Assembly: GCA_964540475.1 (NCBI GenBank)
Contig: CAZIMC010000002.1
Coordinates: 111,551-175,550 of the forward strand
Origin: an uncultured Gammaproteobacteria bacterium
Lineage (GTDB): Bacteria; Patescibacteriota; Microgenomatia; UBA8517
Direction: 5' to 3'
Length of the DNA stretch: 64,000 nucleotides
Shown here: positions 1,838-10,738 of the stretch, piece by piece
How positions within the stretch are numbered: position 1 is the stretch's first letter
Layout: the number at the start of each line of letters is the position of its first letter
Position numbers and translations under genes: made by a program
Notes under the pieces: model-generated
The model's input: only the letters and a program-made list of their open reading frames with translations
Databases searched by the model: none
Told to the model about the DNA's origin: nothing

Positions 1838-2407
1838 ATGACTGAGAATGTAGAGCCAAGAGAAAATTCTGAGATTTTGCAGGAGTTTCGTATTCGGCGA
1901 GCAACTGCCGAGGAGGCTCAAATTGTTTGGGGAATAATCGAAACTTGTGCTAAATGGCTATCTCAAAGAGGGTTAGAACATTGGGCACGTTATTATACAA
2001 AGGACATGGTTGATAAAATGATCAAAAAGAAAGATGTATTCCTGGCACTTAGTGACGGCAAACCTGTTGGGACAATCACAACCGGAAGTAACCCTCCTAA
2101 GTATTATAATGAAGCCGGGTATGCGGGGAAATTTACAAATCCGGAAGACCCGGCTGTTTATATAACGGCTGTTGCAGTGTTACCCGCAGAACACAAACGG
2201 GGGTTTGCTGGTCAAATGCTTCAATATATTGAAGACGAGGCATATCTGGCTGGCGCAGACTGGCTCCGGTTAGATTGCCGCGCCGAAGTGCCTGGACTGG
2301 TTGGCTTTTACGAAAAAAGAGGGTTTGTTAAACTTGGATCTTCTCCTGTTGATGAAGGCGAAGACGGAACATACTGGTTGATGGAAAAGAAAATAGCTAA
2401 AGCTTAA
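1838..2407 (+). CDS. GNAT family N-acetyltransferase
   Basis: 189 aa. Segments ITAVAVLPAEHKRGFAGQMLQYIEDEA and GFYEKRGF are typical of a GNAT core. Confidence 0.7.
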   Translation: MTENVEPRENSEILQEFRIRRATAEEAQIVWGIIETCAKWLSQRGLEHWARYYTKDMVDKMIKKKDVFLALSDGKPVGTITTGSNPPKYYNEAGYAGKFTNPEDPAVYITAVAVLPAEHKRGFAGQMLQYIEDEAYLAGADWLRLDCRAEVPGLVGFYEKRGFVKLGSSPVDEGEDGTYWLMEKKIAKA

Positions 2408-2852
2408 TTTCTGTAATATCCCAAGGATGTTTGTTGAGATCTGAATAGCGAATCCACTTGGGAGTGACTTTGAAGTAGGTAATACCTTTTCTTGATGCCC
2501 AACGCTCAGCCATTGGATTTTTCATCCAATACAATTTTTGGTACTTTTCTTTATTTTCACCAAACACCTCTTCCGCAATTCCTTCGTACTGAACTGTAAT
2601 GTTTTCATCCCAACCAATGACAAATGAAACATTCCTATTTGTTTGTAGATTCTTAAATTTTCTTGAGTGATCATAAGTATCAAATATTAGCTCAAATTCA
2701 CCAGACTCACCAAACTCCAAGACCGCTGATTCTGGTTTGTTGTCTGGACCAACCGTAGAGATGACGGCCAATTTTTGTTTTTTGATGAAGTTTAATATTT
2801 CTTCTTTCGTAACCACCAACCAATTATAACAATTTAAGAAATTATTTCTCAT
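2397..2852 (-). CDS. pyridoxamine 5'-phosphate oxidase-like FMN-binding split-barrel protein
   Basis: 151 aa. N-terminal ILNFIKKQKLAVISTVGPDNKPESAVLEF is PNPOx-like. Start codon CAT at 2850-2852 was verified. Confidence 0.6.
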   Translation of the reverse strand: MRNNFLNCYNWLVVTKEEILNFIKKQKLAVISTVGPDNKPESAVLEFGESGEFELIFDTYDHSRKFKNLQTNRNVSFVIGWDENITVQYEGIAEEVFGENKEKYQKLYWMKNPMAERWASRKGITYFKVTPKWIRYSDLNKHPWDITEIKL

Positions 2853-2969
2853 GTCTATTGATATTCGAACTGAAGTATTGTAACATTTGCTTGGTTTTAC
2901 ATCTTAGAATTGGAAGGAGAAGAACAGTGGGAAGAGGAGTTAGGATTACATATAATTTTTATAGGTTGA

Positions 2970-2998
2970 CCGGAGGCATCTCGCCTACCGGTTTTTTT
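2970..2998 (+). terminator. Rho-independent terminator-like hairpin plus U-tract
   Basis: Stem ccggaggc / gcct(a)ccgg: 8 bp, GC-rich, 1-nt bulge. Loop atctc. Followed by seven T. Sits immediately upstream of the first gene of the putative island. Confidence 0.55.
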
Positions 2999-3011
2999 GT
3001 GGTGAAAGGGG

Positions 3012-3437
3012 GTGATTAAAGTGGGATTAAACATAATTGATGGCTTGAAATCAGCAGGCAAAGTATTACTCGAAGCTAATAAATTTGAACAATACCAACA
3101 AATAATTTTAGCCCAGCAAAAGATATTGAATCAGCAGGAAGAAATTGCTTTAAAGCAAGAAAAAATAAACTTACTTAAGAAACAAAATGAGAAATTGTCT
3201 GAAAAAATCAAAACCCAAAACAAGCTTATTTACGAGGAAAATTCATATTGGATAGTTGAAGACAATAACAAAATTGGACCATATTGTAGCAACTGTTGGG
3301 ATTCTAACACCCGAAGAGTCAGAATGCATGACAGAGATGGCGGTTACTATTTATGTCCAAGTTGTAAAACGGGAACACATATGAGTCCAGAATACACCAG
3401 TGTTAGAACAGTAAAACAACCGGAAAATTACTTCTAG
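3012..3437 (+). CDS. coiled-coil protein with C-terminal Cys4 zinc ribbon
   Basis: 141 aa. Q/K/E-rich heptad-like middle section. C-terminal CSNCW...CPSCK. Appears to use a non-ATG (GTG) start. Printed sequence and track differ by 1 nt here. Confidence 0.5.
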   Translation: MIKVGLNIIDGLKSAGKVLLEANKFEQYQQIILAQQKILNQQEEIALKQEKINLLKKQNEKLSEKIKTQNKLIYEENSYWIVEDNNKIGPYCSNCWDSNTRRVRMHDRDGGYYLCPSCKTGTHMSPEYTSVRTVKQPENYF

Positions 3438-3659
3438 ATGGTTTAATTGCTTTCTAAATTATAAAATAGTCTTATGTCCTTATCGGTTGGCACAAACAAC
3501 GAAAATCCTCATATTTATCCTTCCATTTTAGCTTCCACCCACCACAGCCTAGAAAAGAGAGAGTCATAGTCAACAGGGATGTTCGCGGACGAATAATTTT
3601 ATCCTTGCCTCCACCAGGAATTTATTAACCCTATAATCGTAGCAATCTGAACCTGAAAC

Positions 3660-3668
3660 TGCTATAAT
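3660..3668 (+). promoter_or_regulatory. extended -10 promoter element (TGcTATAAT) upstream of the TM/NTase pair
   Basis: Perfect TATAAT preceded by TGn, 27 nt upstream of the ATG at 3695. A second TATAAT lies at 3632-3637. AAGGA RBS at about 3683. Confidence 0.35.
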
Positions 3669-3694
3669 TTGCTCAACAGAATAAGGATTTATAT

Positions 3695-4198
3695 ATGACT
3701 TTTGTTGAGGTACTGGACTGGGTAGGGCGGATTTCCACAATTGTATTCATTTTAACCATTATTGCCGGAATTTATGCTTGGTTTAGAGGAATTTTACCGG
3801 CTTTACTAAGGCTTGGTAACGGATTGGCTAAACGGAAAATTGCTATTTACGCAAAGGGCGATAACTTCTCAAGTCTTAATGATTTGTTAATTGACTCCAA
3901 ATTGTTCCGAAAAGGAAATATAGTTAAAATTTCCAGTAAAAATGATTTGGGGAAAAGTGATGGCGCGACAATTTTTTTAGTTTACTGGCCTGACTGGAAA
4001 CAAGAAATTTTAGATATACTGAAAATTAAGAGGGACGCTTCTGCTTTAGTTGTGTATGCACCCCAAGAACAGGGTTTTATTCCCAAAGAGCAAATGGACA
4101 AGCTGAATGAACACCGCTGTGTTACTGTTACAAATTTTAGAGGCAGGTTAATCAATGATGTAGTGGTAAGTATGATTACCACTGGATATGACAAATAA
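3695..4198 (+). CDS. single-pass membrane protein with C-terminal Rossmann/flavodoxin-like (TIR-/SLOG-like?) domain; putative effector/sensor partner of the downstream NTase
   Basis: 167 aa. N-terminal TM helix (ISTIVFILTIIAGIYAWF). Alternating beta/alpha hydrophobic pattern: KIAIYAKGD, ATIFLVYWPDW, ALVVYAPQE. Ends 5 bp before the next gene. Confidence 0.5.
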   Translation: MTFVEVLDWVGRISTIVFILTIIAGIYAWFRGILPALLRLGNGLAKRKIAIYAKGDNFSSLNDLLIDSKLFRKGNIVKISSKNDLGKSDGATIFLVYWPDWKQEILDILKIKRDASALVVYAPQEQGFIPKEQMDKLNEHRCVTVTNFRGRLINDVVVSMITTGYDK

Positions 4199-4203
4199 TT
4201 ACA

Positions 4204-4980
4204 ATGACACCTTTGGAATATGTAAACCAAGTACTAAATAGATATAACACATTTTCTGCGACTTTTTTACCTCAAACACCCGTGTACCAATTAATGTTTC
4301 AGCTAATAAACTATTGGGTTACCATGCACAATTTACAAGGATATTTATATGTTTCAGGTTCTAATGCCAAAGGTACAGCTATTGCGGGGGAAGCTGATGT
4401 TGACTTGTTTGTATCGCTTCACCCCAATGCGCTAAATGCCCGGACACTTGCTGACATCTATAATTCCTTAGCACAATTTTTAAGGCAACGGGGTTATTCC
4501 GTGAGAAGACAAAACGTATCCGTAAGAATCAACCATGGTGGGGTTGAAGTAGATATAGTCCCTGGTGTTAAATTTGGTGGTAATACAAATGACCATTGGT
4601 TGCATGTAACCAAGTCAGGTCGGGATAGGATAAAAACAAATATAGATGTGCATATTACTAGAGTAGCAAACTCAGGTAGGATACCAGAAATCCGATTAAC
4701 AAAAATTTGGCGAAGAAATAAAGGGTTAGATTTTCCTTCAATATATCTTGAGGAATGTGTTATCAATTGCTTATCAGGTTACAGATTTGGTAATACTGAT
4801 GCTAACTTTTTGAGAGTACTAGAATACTTATCGACTAACTTTGTAAACGCGAGAATAGTAGACCCAGCAAATACAGCTAATGTTATTTCTGACGATTTGA
4901 CATTACACGAGAAACAGTTAATCAGCTCAACTGCAAATTTCAGTAGATTTCAACCAAATTGGGGAACAATCGTTTGGTAA
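4204..4980 (+). CDS. cGAS/DncV-like (CD-NTase) or SMODS-type nucleotidyltransferase
   Basis: 258 aa. Pol-beta NTase signature GSNAKGTAIAGEADVDLFV (GS-x11-DxD). Third acidic residue sits in VEVDIVPG (hDhhP strand). The pattern is shared with OAS/cGAS/DncV/SMODS. Confidence 0.65.
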   Translation: MTPLEYVNQVLNRYNTFSATFLPQTPVYQLMFQLINYWVTMHNLQGYLYVSGSNAKGTAIAGEADVDLFVSLHPNALNARTLADIYNSLAQFLRQRGYSVRRQNVSVRINHGGVEVDIVPGVKFGGNTNDHWLHVTKSGRDRIKTNIDVHITRVANSGRIPEIRLTKIWRRNKGLDFPSIYLEECVINCLSGYRFGNTDANFLRVLEYLSTNFVNARIVDPANTANVISDDLTLHEKQLISSTANFSRFQPNWGTIVW

Positions 4981-5187
4981 ATGCTTGTCCTCGCTAGTTT
5001 AGTGGTTTAACCCGTTGTTAGTGCTTCCATATACTTTTACACGCTAGGGATTTCAAGGGTTTTTAAGGGTAATACAGGGTGTAACAGGGTATATCTAGGT
5101 TCTACACAAACTTCAATTTTCTATATTCTAGACTTTCTAGTTGGTTTTTACCCAAAGCAAGGATTAACCAGAGTAAATAGAGCGTAA

Positions 5188-6462
5188 ATGAGATATAATT
5201 ACAATATGTCAGAAACACCACCAAATGTAGATAATATACCGATACCTAATAAACCTACTGCTCCAAAAGAATTAGGGAGAGTTGATTTTGCAGAAACCCC
5301 GTTACCTTTTGATGTAAAAGCTGCACAAACCCTCTTTCCAGACTCAAAGCACCTTAAATTACCTGATGGGAATGAGTATATTCTCGATAAAAATGGGAGA
5401 ACAATTATTCTTTTTGAGAAACCCACAGAGCAAGGATTTACTTCGGTTTACTCACCTTTACAACCAAGAGAATTACGACAACAAATCGCCCGTCTCCCAG
5501 AAGAGCAACAGCGTCAATTAGCACAATTACTTCACTTGCCGGATGTTGAGGCAGCAGATATTGTTTCTGCTGCTACCGAAGCAGGAGGTTTAGAAGATTT
5601 ATTAGTAAAGTTAAAAAAAAGACCCGTGACTTCGACTGTGGCGCAACACCGAGAACCTCGTGTTCCTGGTTCAGGACAAGGCATACATACAGAAAGCTCT
5701 GTTAGAGCAGACTTGCCACCAGCAGATTTACCAGATAATCATTTTGTTCAATTAAGCCGTGAAGAGTTTGAAGCGCGCAGAAGAGAACAATGGGAAGCTA
5801 TAAAAGAATTAGATGATAATGACCCTCGCAGAGTTGTTTATCTCAGACGATTTACAGAAGAGTACCGTTCATCCGTACCATTTAATCCAAAGCTTACAGC
5901 AGCTAGGGAAAACCCTTATCAATACTATGTTGTTGATACTTCAAAAATGGGTGAATTGCCGAAAGTGGAGCCATACAGACCATCTCTTGATATACCGAAA
6001 GGAGCAAAGGTTGGTATGGTAATTGGCTACCATCATTTAGAAAAACCGTGGGGTCATTTATTTACAGAGATGCTACAGCAGCAAGCTCAATATGACCCAA
6101 GTCAAATAGAATTTATTTTTATTCAAAATAAAGAAAAGCCAACGGGTGAGCAATCACCTGCGTCAGACCGTGAAATACAGGAAGCAGTAAGGACAAGAGG
6201 GATTACGCATGTAATTGATGTGCATGAGCAACTTGCAACATTAAATCATTATATGGACTCGCATGATAACCCTCAGTTTAGAGAAGCAAGAAAAAGTGGT
6301 TCACAAGGTGAATACACACTTGATCCGTTTGTTCCAACCTGGATGATTGAACAGTATTATCAAGGGCGTGTGTACCCACAATTACAATATGGTGTAAATG
6401 ACCAAATTAAAAAGGTGGAAGCATTGGTCAAAGGTATAGGTAAAGAACCTCAAAAACAGTAA
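5188..6462 (+). CDS. hypothetical protein (island cargo)
   Basis: 424-aa ORF with no recognisable motif. Q/E/R-rich middle. Lies within the recombinase-bounded island. Confidence 0.5.
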   Translation: MRYNYNMSETPPNVDNIPIPNKPTAPKELGRVDFAETPLPFDVKAAQTLFPDSKHLKLPDGNEYILDKNGRTIILFEKPTEQGFTSVYSPLQPRELRQQIARLPEEQQRQLAQLLHLPDVEAADIVSAATEAGGLEDLLVKLKKRPVTSTVAQHREPRVPGSGQGIHTESSVRADLPPADLPDNHFVQLSREEFEARRREQWEAIKELDDNDPRRVVYLRRFTEEYRSSVPFNPKLTAARENPYQYYVVDTSKMGELPKVEPYRPSLDIPKGAKVGMVIGYHHLEKPWGHLFTEMLQQQAQYDPSQIEFIFIQNKEKPTGEQSPASDREIQEAVRTRGITHVIDVHEQLATLNHYMDSHDNPQFREARKSGSQGEYTLDPFVPTWMIEQYYQGRVYPQLQYGVNDQIKKVEALVKGIGKEPQKQ

Positions 6463-6595
6463 GTATTTTTTGCCCCAGCGATTTTTCAAATAACCATCCA
6501 TCTCCATGATACAAAAACTTTTCGACTCCAATTAGATGCGTTTTATTTAGTTTAGCTGTATTTCACTTTGTCCCGTTATGTCGGTCATTTCTGTA

Positions 6596-6639
6596 TTGAC
6601 AACTGCCCATTTTATTTACTAATATTGTTACATAACAAT
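6596..6639 (+). promoter_or_regulatory. sigma70-like promoter (TTGACA-N18-TAATAT) overlapped by a 16-bp palindromic operator (ATTGTTACATAACAAT)
   Basis: Read directly from the sequence. A second inverted repeat, GTCAAC-ac-GTTGAC, lies at 6672-6685. Both are upstream of the 6774 gene. Confidence 0.35.
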
Positions 6640-6773
6640 TCAATAATTTGTCCGTTTAGTTTTGCCGTACAGTCAACACGTTGACGCTTTTTAAGGCAAT
6701 CGGAGTAGGACGCATTCAGCCCTCAAGGCGATTGTTGCTTACAATTGATTGCTTTTTTATTGGCAAAATAAAT

Positions 6774-7028
6774 ATGGACGAAAAATCAATATACTTTATT
6801 ACTGATAATTTGATACTTGCTTCTGTTCTCAAGAGCGAAGGTTTCCAAATTGTTGGGATAAATAAGAAAAATCCTCGCCACTCATATTTTGAATTCCTCA
6901 AGGATGATGAATTGGTCGAAGTAGTCAAACAATTCTGGTCTGACACCCTCTTAATTAGTCCCAAGCGTTTTGCATCTTCTATGAAGGAGCTTAAAACCAT
7001 GCTGTATGACCAATCATTTAGCATGTAG
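6774..7028 (+). CDS. small phage-associated protein (DUF5659-like)
   Basis: 84 aa from the ATG at 6774 (MDEKSIYFITDNLILASVL...). Family assignment is tentative. Confidence 0.4.
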   Translation: MDEKSIYFITDNLILASVLKSEGFQIVGINKKNPRHSYFEFLKDDELVEVVKQFWSDTLLISPKRFASSMKELKTMLYDQSFSM

Positions 7029-7030
7029 GT

Positions 7031-7243
7031 TTGCTGGGACAAAATATGAATAACAATAACAATCGAAACCTCAATGTCTTTGTCAAACCCAATGGTAACA
7101 GAGGATTGAATTATCGTTACCAGAAACTATCCACTAAAAGGGATAGGTCAGACTTTGCCAACTTTTGGTATTGGGCTCATGCCCTGCTTGACTCAATTGG
7201 CAGGGAAAGATTTGAGCCTAGTAGGCATGTTTATAAACTATGA
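7031..7243 (+). CDS. small Asn-rich hypothetical protein
   Basis: 70 aa. Its stop overlaps the start of the next gene (7240). Low complexity (NNNNNRN). Confidence 0.3.
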   Translation: MLGQNMNNNNNRNLNVFVKPNGNRGLNYRYQKLSTKRDRSDFANFWYWAHALLDSIGRERFEPSRHVYKL

Positions 7244-7776
7244 GAAGAATAAAACTAACCCAGAATAGATACGCTTTAGTGGATGACGAAGATTATGATT
7301 ATTTGAGCCAATACAAATGGGCTTATAACCGAAATAGGGGTTATGCATTTCGAAATTTACCCAGAGGTAAGGGTATACGCAAATCAGTATATATGCATAG
7401 AGAGATTATTAGGGCTTTGCCTGGTCAAGAAGTAGACCACATAAATAATATCAAGTTAGACAACCGTAAAAAAAATTTAAGAATATGTTCGCACATAGAA
7501 AATCAAAGAAACCTACCCCTATCAAGAAATACATCTGGTTATAGAGGAGTCTCCTGGTATAAGCCTACAGGCAAGTGGAGAGCAACTATAAAAGTGAACA
7601 AGAAATTTAAGCATTTAGGATTATTTGAAAACATAATTGATGCAGCAAAGGCATTCGACAGGGCAGCAAAAATTTACCACGGCGGTTATGCAAGGTTAAA
7701 CTTTGGTCAAAGACAAGAATATGCTATTACGTCTTATCTGACCTATGTTAATGGTTTATCAGCATTAGGTAGCTAA
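7240..7776 (+). CDS. HNH endonuclease fused to AP2 DNA-binding domain (phage-type homing endonuclease)
   Basis: HNH_3 motif VDHINNIKLDNRKKNLRICSHIENQRN. AP2 domain YRGVSWYKPTGKWRATIKVNKKFKHLGLFENIIDAAKAFDRAAKIYHG. Confidence 0.8.
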   Translation: MRRIKLTQNRYALVDDEDYDYLSQYKWAYNRNRGYAFRNLPRGKGIRKSVYMHREIIRALPGQEVDHINNIKLDNRKKNLRICSHIENQRNLPLSRNTSGYRGVSWYKPTGKWRATIKVNKKFKHLGLFENIIDAAKAFDRAAKIYHGGYARLNFGQRQEYAITSYLTYVNGLSALGS

Positions 7777-7823
7777 CCAGACTAGCCTTATGTGATGTAA
7801 GGCCTTAATATCAATAAAAAATT

Positions 7824-8066
7824 ATGAAAAGAGTGATGGAACCGAAATTATTATTCCGATATTTGGATAATGAAGATAGCGAAACTCGCCTTAAAACCGC
7901 ATATTGGAGGATATTTCGACAGGCACGAAAGAACTTAATTCGAAGAAAGAAAATGTTGGGGATAGATTATCTCCATACATATGAACTAATACCCGTGAAG
8001 AAAATAAAAATAAGAATAATTAACCCTGTTTTATACGACAGGGACAAAATAAGAATTTATGGATAA
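7824..8066 (+). CDS. small basic protein, possible recombination directionality factor
   Basis: 80 aa, Arg/Lys-rich. Lies immediately upstream of, and overlaps by 8 bp, the serine recombinase gene. Confidence 0.35.
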   Translation: MKRVMEPKLLFRYLDNEDSETRLKTAYWRIFRQARKNLIRRKKMLGIDYLHTYELIPVKKIKIRIINPVLYDRDKIRIYG

Positions 8067-9669
8067 TCATCTATCAAATGTATCGGGTTACTATGCCCGT
8101 GTTTCAACAGGCAGGCAGGAAAACGAAGAAACAATAGAGTCCCAGAAAGCAGAAATTAAGGAAAGAATAAAAAAGGATAATAATTATATTTCCCCTGAAC
8201 ATGAATTCTTTGATGACGGATGGACTGGAACAATACTAGCCAGACCTGGACTCGATGCCTTAAGAGATACAGTAAAGCGAAAAGAGATTAAGTATTTATA
8301 TGTTTACGATTTAGGTCGATTGAGCCGAGATTTTACTTATCAGTTATTGCTTCTAAAAGAGTTTGAGGACGAAGGGGTAAAGGTAATATCGCTACACGAT
8401 ATTAACCCTGAGAATGGTGAGCAAAACTTTATGCGTAATATCATGGGTGCCTTCCACGATTATGAACGTATCAAAATTGCGGAACGGTTCAGGCGAGGTA
8501 AATTGCATAAGGCAAAGAATGGCCTTCTAATCAATGGTCAAGGACTATACGGTTATACCTACATAAAAAAGACAGATAATAAACCACCCAAAATTGTGCT
8601 AAATGCAAAAGAAGCAGAGGTGGTGAAACTAATTTTCAATTGGTTAGGTAATGAAGGATATTCCATTAAGGAAATTGTCAGAAAGCTTTACGAGAAGGGA
8701 ATACAGCCGAGAAAGAACAAAAGCGAGTTTTGGAGTACAGGACCAATTCTAAGGCTTCTTCGGTGTGACTCTTATATTACAGGGGTGATTTACTATAACA
8801 AATCAGAAGCGATTGAAACTAAAGTACCTCGAAAAGAAGAAAAGTACAGGAAGATAAAAAAGGGGAGCAGACGGGTAAGGCCAAGGGCAGAATGGTATCC
8901 CTACAAAGTACCGAAAATCCTAGATGATTGGGATTTATTCAACCGAGTCCAAAAGATATTGGACAACAATCGAAGGCATGGACCGAGAAGAAAATCTTAT
9001 GACTATTTGTTATCAGGTCTAATATTTTGTGAGTGTGGTCAAAGGCGGGCAGGAAATGGGAAGAATAACGGGCATTACTATTATCGGTGTACTGACAGAA
9101 TTCTCAGGCATCCCTTACCTCCTGAATGTAAATCACCGGCCTTAAATGCCAGAGTACTCGATAAAGTGTTTTGTGATGAGCTTACGAAATACCTCACAAA
9201 TTCCAAGAACATCAACGAGATTGCAGAAGACTACCTCAAAGCTCAAGCGGTTGATGAAAGCGAGGAAAGAGAAAAGCAAGCACACCTTCATAACATTTCA
9301 AAGCTTGAGGAAGAAGAAAGACGCTGTATCAGGCTTCATGTTGAGGGAGAAATTGAGTTCGAGGAATTTAAGGAACTAAAAAGTGATATAAACAAACGAA
9401 GAAAGGATGAAGAAAACGAGCTAAAACGACTAAATGAGCTAACAAAGGATATAAATATCGATAACGTTGAGCTACAAGAATTCTGCCAAGAGGTGAAAGA
9501 AGTGTTACAGAGCCTCAATTACTCAAGTAAGTCTTTGTTAATTAGAGACGTAATTGATAAAATAGTCATGAAAGGAACAACAAATGAGGTTGAAGTTATG
9601 GGGCATATACCCATAAATCACCTAAATATCGGGTATGAACTTATCAGTAGGAATAGTGGGCCTACCTAA
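8059..9669 (+). CDS. large serine recombinase (integrase)
   Basis: N-terminal resolvase catalytic domain (YARVSTGRQENEE with the catalytic Ser region). Central recombinase domain. Zn-ribbon (CECG...C..C). C-terminal coiled coil. 536 aa. Confidence 0.9.
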   Translation: MDNHLSNVSGYYARVSTGRQENEETIESQKAEIKERIKKDNNYISPEHEFFDDGWTGTILARPGLDALRDTVKRKEIKYLYVYDLGRLSRDFTYQLLLLKEFEDEGVKVISLHDINPENGEQNFMRNIMGAFHDYERIKIAERFRRGKLHKAKNGLLINGQGLYGYTYIKKTDNKPPKIVLNAKEAEVVKLIFNWLGNEGYSIKEIVRKLYEKGIQPRKNKSEFWSTGPILRLLRCDSYITGVIYYNKSEAIETKVPRKEEKYRKIKKGSRRVRPRAEWYPYKVPKILDDWDLFNRVQKILDNNRRHGPRRKSYDYLLSGLIFCECGQRRAGNGKNNGHYYYRCTDRILRHPLPPECKSPALNARVLDKVFCDELTKYLTNSKNINEIAEDYLKAQAVDESEEREKQAHLHNISKLEEEERRCIRLHVEGEIEFEEFKELKSDINKRRKDEENELKRLNELTKDINIDNVELQEFCQEVKEVLQSLNYSSKSLLIRDVIDKIVMKGTTNEVEVMGHIPINHLNIGYELISRNSGPT

Positions 9670-10738
9670 CGTTGGAAAGTCCACACTTTTTAATGCGCTT
9701 TTGAAAAAGCAGCAAGCATATGTTGCTAATTTTCCTTTTGCAACGATCGAACCGAATATTGGAGTCGTGCCAGTACCAGACAATCGTCTATCGCAATTGT
9801 CGCAAGCGGTCAAAGGTTCAGAAGGGCTTGACGTTTTGCCGCCCGGGGTTCCTGCGACTGTTGAGTTCGTAGACATTGCAGGGTTAATCGCAGGAGCACA
9901 TAAAGGCGAAGGTTTGGGGAATAAATTTCTAAGCCATATTAGGGAAGTTGATGCGATTTGTCATGTCTTACGGGTTTTTAGTGATAAGGATATTGTGCGT
10001 GACGGGCAAATAACACCCGACTTGGATTTTGAAACTATTGAAACTGAGTTGGCGCTTGCTGATCTGCAGACATTAGAAAACCAGAAAGACCCGGGAGGCT
10101 CGCAGGACAAAGAATTACGAAAAAGATGGGAATTAGTACTAAAATTAAAGGAATCGATCTCAAAAGGTAAGCCGGCAAGAAGTATTGTTTTATCGGATGA
10201 AGAGACAAAAATCCTAAAAGAACTCTCATTACTTACAGCAAAACCAATTTTGATTGTACTTAATGTCGATGAGGACGATTTAAAACGAAGAGGCGAGATC
10301 GAAGAACATTTTGCAATGCGGCTTAAAGTCAATAAAGAGCAGGTTGTTACAATTTGTGCAAAGACCGAAAGCCAATTAGCTGATCTTACTGACGAGGAGC
10401 AGGCAGTTTATTTAAGTGAATTAGGGGTATCTGACTCAGGATTATCACGACTGATTCAAAAAGCATTTACAACACTTGGACTTATTACTTTTCTGACAGC
10501 TGGTGAAAAGGAAGTTCGGGCCTGGACCATTAAAGCGGGAATTACGGCACAAGAGGCCTCGGGGGTTATCCACACGGATTTTATGAAAAAGTTTATAAAG
10601 GCAGACGTTTGCAATTTCAACGATTTTATATCTGCCCCGGGATGGAAGATTGCCCGAGAGAAAGGGCTGGTCCGTTCAGAAGGCCGGGACTATATTGTAA
10701 AAGAGGCGGATGTAATTGAGTTTAAAATTGGAAGCTGA
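9635..10738 (+). CDS. ychF: ribosome-binding ATPase YchF (Obg family GTPase)
   Basis: G1 motif GIVGLPNVGKSTLFNAL. C-terminal TGS domain. 367 aa. Confidence 0.9.
   Translation: MNLSVGIVGLPNVGKSTLFNALLKKQQAYVANFPFATIEPNIGVVPVPDNRLSQLSQAVKGSEGLDVLPPGVPATVEFVDIAGLIAGAHKGEGLGNKFLSHIREVDAICHVLRVFSDKDIVRDGQITPDLDFETIETELALADLQTLENQKDPGGSQDKELRKRWELVLKLKESISKGKPARSIVLSDEETKILKELSLLTAKPILIVLNVDEDDLKRRGEIEEHFAMRLKVNKEQVVTICAKTESQLADLTDEEQAVYLSELGVSDSGLSRLIQKAFTTLGLITFLTAGEKEVRAWTIKAGITAQEASGVIHTDFMKKFIKADVCNFNDFISAPGWKIAREKGLVRSEGRDYIVKEADVIEFKIGS

Follow-up and report, generated by a model that had tools for sequence, protein, structure and literature searches.

A two-gene cassette in a Woesebacteria-like Patescibacteria genome is probably a type I CBASS operon with a TM-REC-like effector

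Introduction

Two adjacent genes at positions 3695-4980 of a 64,000-nucleotide stretch of contig CAZIMC010000002.1 (GenBank assembly GCA_964540475.1), which we analysed as a whole and call the window, encode a small membrane protein and a short nucleotidyltransferase. The question raised by this cassette is whether it is a nucleotide-signalling defence system and, if so, of which kind. A first-pass annotation made from the sequence alone had read it as a minimal nucleotide-signalling defence module that lies outside types I-IV of CBASS (anti-phage signalling systems that use cyclic oligonucleotides). Here we conclude that the cassette is probably a type I CBASS operon, with the effector gene first and the cyclase gene second, and that it would encode a membrane-disrupting abortive infection circuit.

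Type I CBASS needs only a cyclase and an effector, and 1TM, 2TM and phospholipase proteins are among its effectors (DefenseFinder paper, PMC9090908). The hidden Markov models by which PADLOC recognises CBASS were built from the loci of Millman et al. 2020 (PMC8565338).

Results

Layout of the cassette

The window carries on its + strand an open reading frame (ORF) of 167 aa, the effector gene, followed by one of 258 aa, the cyclase gene. Only 5 nt separate the effector stop codon (TAA, 4196-4198) from the cyclase ATG at 4204, and both ORFs and their spacing are as the first-pass annotation had them. Both genes are real; each has >500 homologues at 40-76% identity. The features of the cassette are as follows.

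3660-3668, + strand: putative extended -10 element TGCTATAAT of the two-gene operon, read from the sequence
3683-3687, + strand: putative Shine-Dalgarno-like AAGGA, 7 nt 5' of the effector ATG, read from the sequence
3695-4198, + strand: effector gene, CBASS '1TM' effector with Cam2-like transmembrane (TM)-REC architecture (PADLOC, homologues, AlphaFold2)
3710-3808, + strand: N-terminal hydrophobic/TM helix, ~residues 6-38 (Kyte-Doolittle, charge, AlphaFold2)
3839-4180, + strand: cytoplasmic REC/CheY-like (β/α)5 domain, residues 49-162, presumed cyclic-oligonucleotide sensor
4204-4980, + strand: cyclase gene, short nucleotidyltransferase of the cGAS/DncV-like (CD-NTase)/SMODS family (PADLOC, AlphaFold2, Foldseek, PDB profile)
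4357-4404, + strand: codons of the catalytic G52-S53 ... D65-x-D67 motif, read from the sequence and invariant in 36 aligned members
4552-4554, + strand: codon of the third catalytic Asp, D117, invariant in the alignment

The extended -10 element that had been proposed in front of the pair is present as TGCTATAAT, 27 nt from the effector ATG. Across the window, TGNTATAAT occurs 10 times against 2.9 expected, a count reached in 0 of 100 shuffles (sites at 2823, 3660, 14108, 15640, 17831, 24998, 30967, 35448, 41260 and 45228). Because of this excess, TGNTATAAT is plausibly a real promoter type in the source organism, and it may be the dominant promoter form of the source genome. No -35 partner for the site at 3660-3668 was matched in a generic sigma-70 scan, and no terminator was found after the pair in a generic promoter/terminator scan, the output of which was overall not above shuffled expectation.

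The 258-aa protein is a short CD-NTase

Over its full length (positions 1-253 of 253) the 258-aa protein matches the PADLOC model PDLC00803, 'Cyclase, oligonucleotide-cyclase' (E=1e-74), and it also matches, more weakly, 16 other PADLOC CBASS cyclase models. All residues of the catalytic signature previously read in it are present: G52-S53 is followed after 11 residues by D65-V66-D67, and the third Asp, D117, lies within GVEVDIVPG. Each of these five residues (G52, S53, D65, D67 and D117) is invariant in a 36-sequence alignment of the cyclase family. The family is large, with more than 668 homologues that are nearly all 250-258 aa long and of which the majority carry Pfam SMODS. The protein has no hydrophobic stretch in Kyte-Doolittle windows and no recognisable sensor or regulatory extension, and PHROGs returned nothing useful for either the cyclase or the effector.

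The AlphaFold2 model of the cyclase (pLDDT, a predicted local distance difference score, 91.5) has the CD-NTase fold. When it was compared with the PDB by Foldseek, the top matches were CdnC of E. coli MS115-1 (EcCdnC; E ~3e-12) and CdnD of P. aeruginosa (PaCdnD; TMq 0.77-0.78), followed by CdnB, CdnE, CdnG and DncV, with NF45/NF90 and archaeal CCA-adding enzymes interleaved from rank 11. A profile of the cyclase family searched against the PDB gave EcCdnC (4e-12), CdnD of B. cereus (BcCdnD; 9sa4, 1e-10) and PaCdnD (4e-8) as its three best matches. CdnC and CdnD are therefore the best solved relatives by both profile and structure, at only ~20% identity, and the cyclase is a candidate member of clade C or D of Whiteley et al. 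2019.

These results bear on the possibility that the enzyme is a nucleotidyltransferase of another kind (an MNT antitoxin, AbiEii, aminoglycoside or CCA-type enzyme) and that the membrane protein beside it is unrelated. Some weak matches point that way, namely NTP_transf_2 at 17.5 bits and an archaeal CCA-adding enzyme model at 31.5 bits against a cut-off of 281, and one JGI homologue of the cyclase has been automatically named 'CCA-adding enzyme'. However, the MNT, AbiEii and aminoglycoside nucleotidyltransferase families, including HEPN-MNT, gave no match in Pfam, NCBIfam or PADLOC, whereas the CBASS cyclase model is matched along its entire length; CD-NTases rank above CCA enzymes by structure; and the gene is tightly and recurrently linked with known CBASS effectors and ancillary genes, as described below. 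We consider this explanation extremely improbable, and the cGAS/DncV-like (SMODS) identity first proposed for the protein holds.

The 167-aa protein is a single-pass effector with a REC-like domain

The upstream protein matches PADLOC PDLC00664, 'Effector 1TM', at E=1.2e-60 over model positions 12-173 of 174, and PDLC01057, 'C3a59, trans-membrane', at E=2.4e-54. Its homologues at 53-75% identity number more than 515 and are spread across phyla. Its sole hydrophobic stretch lies at the N terminus, where 19-aa Kyte-Doolittle windows above 1.6 begin only at residues 5-20, and residues 30-50, after this segment, have a net charge of +5; by the positive-inside rule the predicted orientation is N-out/C-in. 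An AlphaFold2 model built on 35 homologues (mean pLDDT 86) consists of a continuous N-terminal helix, residues 3-45, and a five-fold β/α domain, residues 49-162. This agrees with the single N-terminal TM helix of the first-pass annotation. The domain that follows it had been called Rossmann-like, on the strength of the strings KIAIYAKGD (48-56), ATIFLVYWPDW (91-101) and ALVVYAPQE (117-125); the alternating β/α arrangement is confirmed by the model, and REC/CheY-like (β/α)5 is a better description of it than Rossmann.

Conservation in the effector is concentrated at two places. The residues invariant in the family (K54, W98, Y121, P123, N147, R149, G150, R151, N154 and D155), together with the near-invariant D100 and W101, map to the loops after β1, β3, β4 and β5. 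The face that matches the phosphorylation pocket of true receivers is lined by aromatic and arginine residues instead, and from the model we suggest that these loops form a nucleotide pocket. The most conserved part of the protein is the juxtamembrane segment G32-P35-R39-G41-G43-R47-K48, which may couple the sensor to the helix.

The receiver fold is the commonest bacterial phospho-signalling domain. A role of the effector as a two-component receiver was rejected, since there was no match to Pfam Response_reg, no REC by profile against the PDB and no kinase gene nearby. As far as the model tells, the likeness to REC is one of fold only and not of sequence. The effector had no match in Pfam (at E<=1) or NCBIfam, and searches of the solved structures with the single sequence and with a profile gave only spurious matches (a designed TIM barrel and FABP), with no Csx23, Cam1, CARF, TIR, STING or REC protein among the sequence and profile matches in the PDB.

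The effector is linked to CD-NTases of several classes and to type III-B CRISPR

The genomic distribution of the effector bears on the claim that the pair is a conserved one. A scan that took one genome per species gave 144 confirmed effector loci. The 80 retained for analysis represent Patescibacteria, Chloroflexota, Acidobacteriota, Pseudomonadota, Bacteroidota, Nitrospirota, Omnitrophota and other taxa. Clustering of neighbouring ORFs placed a CD-NTase-like gene within ~3 kb of the 1TM gene in 59 of the 80 loci, tblastn added two truncated ones, and several of the loci in which no CD-NTase was found are cut by contig ends. At least 59 of the 80 loci therefore have a CD-NTase gene beside the 1TM gene.

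The partners, confirmed on representative loci, are of different classes. Cyclases of ~255 aa, the type found in the window, always follow the effector, with gaps of -7 to 27 nt. The other classes are 440-aa SMODS+AGS_C cyclases (PDLC00785, E=5e-177), ~335-aa cyclases with an E2-like gene after them, cyclases with an E1/E2 (Cap2-like) gene upstream, and cyclase-HORMA-TRIP13 operons in which the 1TM gene comes last. In five loci the effector has type III CRISPR genes as neighbours instead. Two of these are type III-B cmr loci, with the order Cas10-Cmr3-Cmr4-x-RAMP-Cas6-effector in L005 (100-6495) and Cas10-Cmr3-...-Cmr6-effector in L053 (195-6462), and in L006, L010 and L017 the effector homologue has RAMP neighbours. 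The family thereby links the CBASS '1TM' effector class with the CRISPR 'C3a59'/Cam2 class, and the 1TM protein is a portable effector module of type I, II and III CBASS and of type III-B CRISPR.

None of the ORFs that flank the pair in the window (the 424-aa ORF, the 141-aa ORF, the DUF5659 gene and the HNH gene) was found beside the pair in 84 related loci. Hence the conserved unit is exactly two genes, and the flanking ORFs were ruled out as extra components of the system.

A separate observation concerns regulation. A LexA-like gene (LexA_DNA_bind + Peptidase_S24, ~208 aa) adjoins the 1TM/cyclase cassette in 26 of the 80 loci, in several phyla, and is most often placed divergently upstream of the cassette. 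These loci include L002, L003, L007, L011, L013, L014, L016, L019, L022, L023, L028, L031, L035, L036, L039, L041, L046, L050, L063, L071 and others; examples are L013:5306-5932 (-) and L007:5352-6014 (+). The arrangement suggests that this CBASS subtype has a repressor of its own that responds to DNA damage. Such a regulator was looked for in the window and is absent from it.

The cassette has the defining features of type I CBASS

With both partners identified, the cassette can be compared with the definition of type I CBASS. The cyclase matches PDLC00803 at full length, carries the G[GS]...[DE]x[DE]...[DE] residues and has the CD-NTase fold. The adjacent gene is a PADLOC 'Effector 1TM', a class recurrently linked to CD-NTases. 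There was no PADLOC defence match on the 141-aa and 424-aa ORFs flanking the pair, and Cap2/Cap3, HORMA/TRIP13 and type IV ancillary genes are absent. The cassette has, at the level that a sequence can address, every defining feature of type I CBASS.

The proposal of a minimal nucleotide-signalling defence module with a conserved genetic partner is therefore borne out by the PADLOC matches, the linkage and the invariant catalytic residues, and its placement outside CBASS types I-IV is not: a cyclase and an effector without ancillary genes are the definition of type I, and gene order and protein size, on which the exclusion had been partly based, are not defining features. Of the outcomes that the annotation had named as fatal to its proposal, a place in the MNT, AbiEii or aminoglycoside families and a partner never co-conserved with the cyclase did not occur. 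The same annotation was right that the pair does not fit SMODS-SLATT. The partner has no SLATT match and is not a SLATT multi-TM protein, having one TM helix and a REC-like domain, and a SMODS-SLATT pair was rejected on this ground.

Sister cyclases paired with NucC point to cyclic tri-AMP as a likely signal

What signal the cyclase makes is suggested by a change of partner among its relatives. Four relatives of the short cyclase lie on long contigs, and in each the cyclase gene is followed by a gene for a protein that Pfam labels only as DUF6602.

L081, 3001-4502: short cyclase and DUF6602 protein
L082, 3001-4498: short cyclase and DUF6602 protein
L083, 3001-4487: short cyclase and DUF6602 protein
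L084, 3001-4487: short cyclase and DUF6602 protein

The DUF6602 proteins of L081 and L082, the two that were scanned, are NucC by PADLOC (E=1e-100 and 3e-78, respectively). L081 is from Paenibacillus sp. Soil787, and its pair stands directly after a large serine recombinase gene, a kind of gene that the window also carries. The NucC-linked cyclases are 46-49% identical to the cyclase of the window, and many of the short cyclases linked to a 1TM gene are 39-43% identical to it. Since the NucC-linked cyclases are closer than many of the 1TM-linked ones, effectors have been swapped inside one cyclase family.

NucC is a nuclease activated by 3'3'3'-cyclic tri-AMP (cA3), active at low nanomolar cAAA (10.1101/694695), and EcCdnC, BcCdnD and PaCdnD are all documented 3'3'3'-cA3 synthases (Ye et al. 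10.1101/694695; Gaskell-Mew et al. 2026, PMC13424991). By analogy we lean towards cA3 as the product of the cyclase, on four independent but indirect lines: its solved relatives make cA3, its sister cyclases pair with NucC, HORMA/TRIP13 CBASS and type III-B CRISPR are among the settings of the effector, and cA3 is the published prediction for Cam2.

The main rival explanation keeps the type I CBASS assignment and changes the signal, which would be a cyclic dinucleotide or a mixed-base trinucleotide to which the REC-like domain is tuned. CD-NTase product specificity varies within clades, and one common product is not required of the five or more cyclase classes, distinct in sequence, to which the 1TM effector is linked. 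A minor product of EcCdnC is cAA, and NucC shows a weak response both to it and to cAAG (10.1101/694695). However, all three of the closest solved relatives make cA3, the sister cyclases are paired with NucC, and the effector family occurs in HORMA/TRIP13 CBASS and type III-B CRISPR, for which signalling by cA3 is established. A different nucleotide is a realistic possibility, although a distinctly less probable one than cA3.

An alternative of another sort inverts the logic of the circuit. In a Panoptes-like guard the cyclase would be constitutively active, its product would hold the effector off, and phage sponges or nucleases that remove the nucleotide would release the effector. Inverse logic of this sort is documented for two-gene pairs that combine a minimal cyclase with a TM effector, including a cA3-controlled CARF-TM effector (PMC13577387, PMC12657218), and the lack of a recognisable sensor or regulatory extension in the short cyclase would suit such a role. 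Nevertheless, the Panoptes cyclase is an mCpol (Cas10-palm) enzyme and not a CD-NTase (PMC13577387), and the cyclase of the window is a Pol-β-fold CD-NTase; a Panoptes system proper was rejected for this reason. In addition, the same effector family serves type II and III CBASS and type III-B CRISPR, in which the signal is made on infection, and so the effector should be activated by its ligand; sister cyclases likewise drive NucC, which is ligand-activated and would be lethal with a constitutive cyclase. We regard guard logic as very improbable.

Proposed mechanism

Taking the cassette as a type I CBASS operon that signals with cA3, we infer the following course for the infection cue, the signal, its binding site, the oligomeric membrane-disruption step and the resulting anti-phage activity. 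A cue of phage infection would switch on the compact CD-NTase of the CdnC/CdnD neighbourhood, which most probably would cyclise ATP into cA3. The effector would be anchored in the cytoplasmic membrane by its N-terminal helix, with the receiver-like domain exposed to the cytoplasm, and the loops after β1, β3, β4 and β5 of this REC-like domain would make up the pocket that binds the cyclic oligonucleotide. With the ligand bound, the TM helices would be driven to oligomerise or rearrange, the membrane would lose its integrity or potential, and the infected cell would die or arrest before phage release.

A broader proposal would be that a receiver (CheY-like) fold has been recruited as a cA3 receptor that gates a single-helix membrane killer, that this module is common to type I, II and III CBASS and type III-B CRISPR, and that the ~255-aa cyclase is a near-minimal, regulator-free cA3 synthase; we hold the case for and against it to be evenly balanced. 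A REC domain as a sensor of cyclic oligoadenylate had already been proposed for Cam2 (Hoikkala et al. 2024, PMC11229360), and the CBASS-wide linkage and the NucC partner swap are new support for it.

The cassette lies in a low-GC segment with a serine recombinase

The genes around the cassette are listed below.

3012-3437: 141-aa ORF upstream of the pair
5188-6462, + strand: 424-aa orphan ORF directly 3' of the cassette
6681-7776, + strand: DUF5659 gene, 70-aa ORF and HNH_3+AP2 gene, between the cassette and the recombinase
7240-7776, + strand: HNH_3+AP2 homing-type endonuclease (phrog_99, E=7e-41)
8059-9669, + strand: large serine recombinase (Resolvase + Recombinase + Zn_ribbon_recom; PHROG integrase, E=9e-80)
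9635-10738, + strand: housekeeping gene ychF

Among the ORFs of 2397-9669, Pfam matches were restricted to PNPOx, DUF5659, HNH/AP2 and the serine recombinase. Searches with the 424-aa ORF gave no match in Pfam, NCBIfam, PADLOC or PHROGs, nor did any of the 84 related loci contain a relative, and it is apparently island cargo. The GC content of ~2400-9000 is 0.34-0.39, compared with 0.40-0.46 in the flanks. The phage-like cargo at 6681-7776 supports an origin of the ~2.9-9.7 kb segment, which also has the lower GC, as a prophage remnant or integrative element. The recombinase gene overlaps the start of ychF by 35 nt, which suggests integration of the element at the 5' end of this housekeeping gene. 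Among named proteins, YchF is most closely related to those of Candidatus Woesebacteria and the Microgenomates group, at 69-72% identity, and the host is therefore probably a bacterium of the Patescibacteria (CPR).

The picture of an integrase-bounded island with an HNH endonuclease next to the pair needs revision in two respects. There is one recombinase gene only (8059-9669), and the island is therefore bounded on one side; in a repeat search over 2300-10000 neither att-like direct repeats nor structured inverted repeats of a convincing kind were found, so that the island borders are defined by the GC dip and the recombinase only. The HNH gene, in turn, is 2.3 kb downstream of the pair, past the 424-aa ORF and the DUF5659 gene.

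Such surroundings raise the possibility that the cassette no longer functions and is decaying along with a degraded mobile element that carries it. The lower-GC stretch with its serine recombinase, homing-type HNH gene and orphan ORFs would be expected on this explanation, as would the failure to detect a terminator-like site or a consensus -35. Against this, neither ORF is truncated when set against its family model, both proteins keep every residue that is invariant in their families, and the spacing, ribosome-binding site and extended -10 element are intact. Decay is thus very improbable, and we retain the reading of the cassette as a type I CBASS operon.

Discussion

As a locus, the cassette is routine, in that either PADLOC or DefenseFinder would assign it to CBASS type I without manual work. 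It is of value because it gives access to a biochemically untouched, highly conserved family of ~165-aa effectors (55-75% identity across phyla), which accompanies five kinds of CD-NTase operon as well as type III-B CRISPR. If the proposed mechanism is true, binding of cA3 by a REC fold together with membrane gating by one helix would be a new class of cyclic-oligonucleotide receptor, and the compact cyclase could be a minimal model of CD-NTase activation. In addition, the cassette is a record of CBASS from a Woesebacteria-like Patescibacteria genome.

Several points weigh against this interpretation. Closely related CD-NTases can differ in the product they make, and the cA3 assignment is therefore short of proof. 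The cyclase scores 18 bits with Pfam SMODS and ~50 bits with the NCBIfam CBASS cyclase models, for which the cut-offs are 200, and both results are below the curated cut-offs. For five effector homologues (L012, L052, L057, L058 and L064) the surrounding 6 kb contains neither a cyclase gene nor a CRISPR gene; they belong to Ktedonobacteraceae and Thermogemmatispora, have a DUF1648 membrane protein gene and ABC-transporter-like genes beside them, and are possibly orphans that work in trans or have a different role. Finally, the searched literature held no experimental study of Cam2 or of CBASS 1TM effectors, and Cam2 is itself a bioinformatic prediction, being a predicted cA3 sensor (Hoikkala et al. 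2024, PMC11229360).

Comparison with known systems

The closest known system is type I CBASS with a '1TM' effector (Millman et al. 2020, PADLOC/DefenseFinder), with which the cassette shares a cyclase plus one effector and the absence of Cap2/Cap3/HORMA/TRIP13. The copy in the window departs from it in no defining feature; it differs in being effector-first, in having a cyclase that at 258 aa is at the short end of the range, and in coming from a Woesebacteria-like Patescibacteria genome. The short-cyclase and NucC type I pairs (e.g. L081) have a cyclase of the same ~255-aa family and are likewise two-gene operons, but there the effector is a soluble endonuclease encoded downstream of the cyclase, whereas the effector of the window is a membrane protein encoded upstream.

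With EcCdnC and PaCdnD (type III CBASS) and BcCdnD (type II CBASS), the cyclase of the window shares the Pol-β nucleotidyltransferase core and the GS/DxD/D residues. In contrast to these enzymes it is 40-80 residues shorter, is ~20% identical to them, and has no HORMA/TRIP13 or Cap2/Cap3 nearby.

On the effector side, Cam2 (CRISPR-associated membrane protein 2, PMC11229360), compared by its published description, likewise has an N-terminal TM helix and a C-terminal REC-like domain. The effector of the window is coupled to a CD-NTase and not to Cas10; the type III CRISPR setting of Cam2 is found for its relatives in L005 and L053, but not for the copy in the window. The arrangement of an N-terminal TM segment and a cytoplasmic sensor is also common to Cap15 (TM + β-barrel), Cap14 (TM-SAVED), Cam1 (TM-CARF) and Csx23 (TM + novel tetrameric cA4 domain), which disrupt or depolarise the membrane on ligand binding. 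The effector of the window differs from all of them in its REC-like sensor fold and has no sequence match or top-ranking structural match to any.

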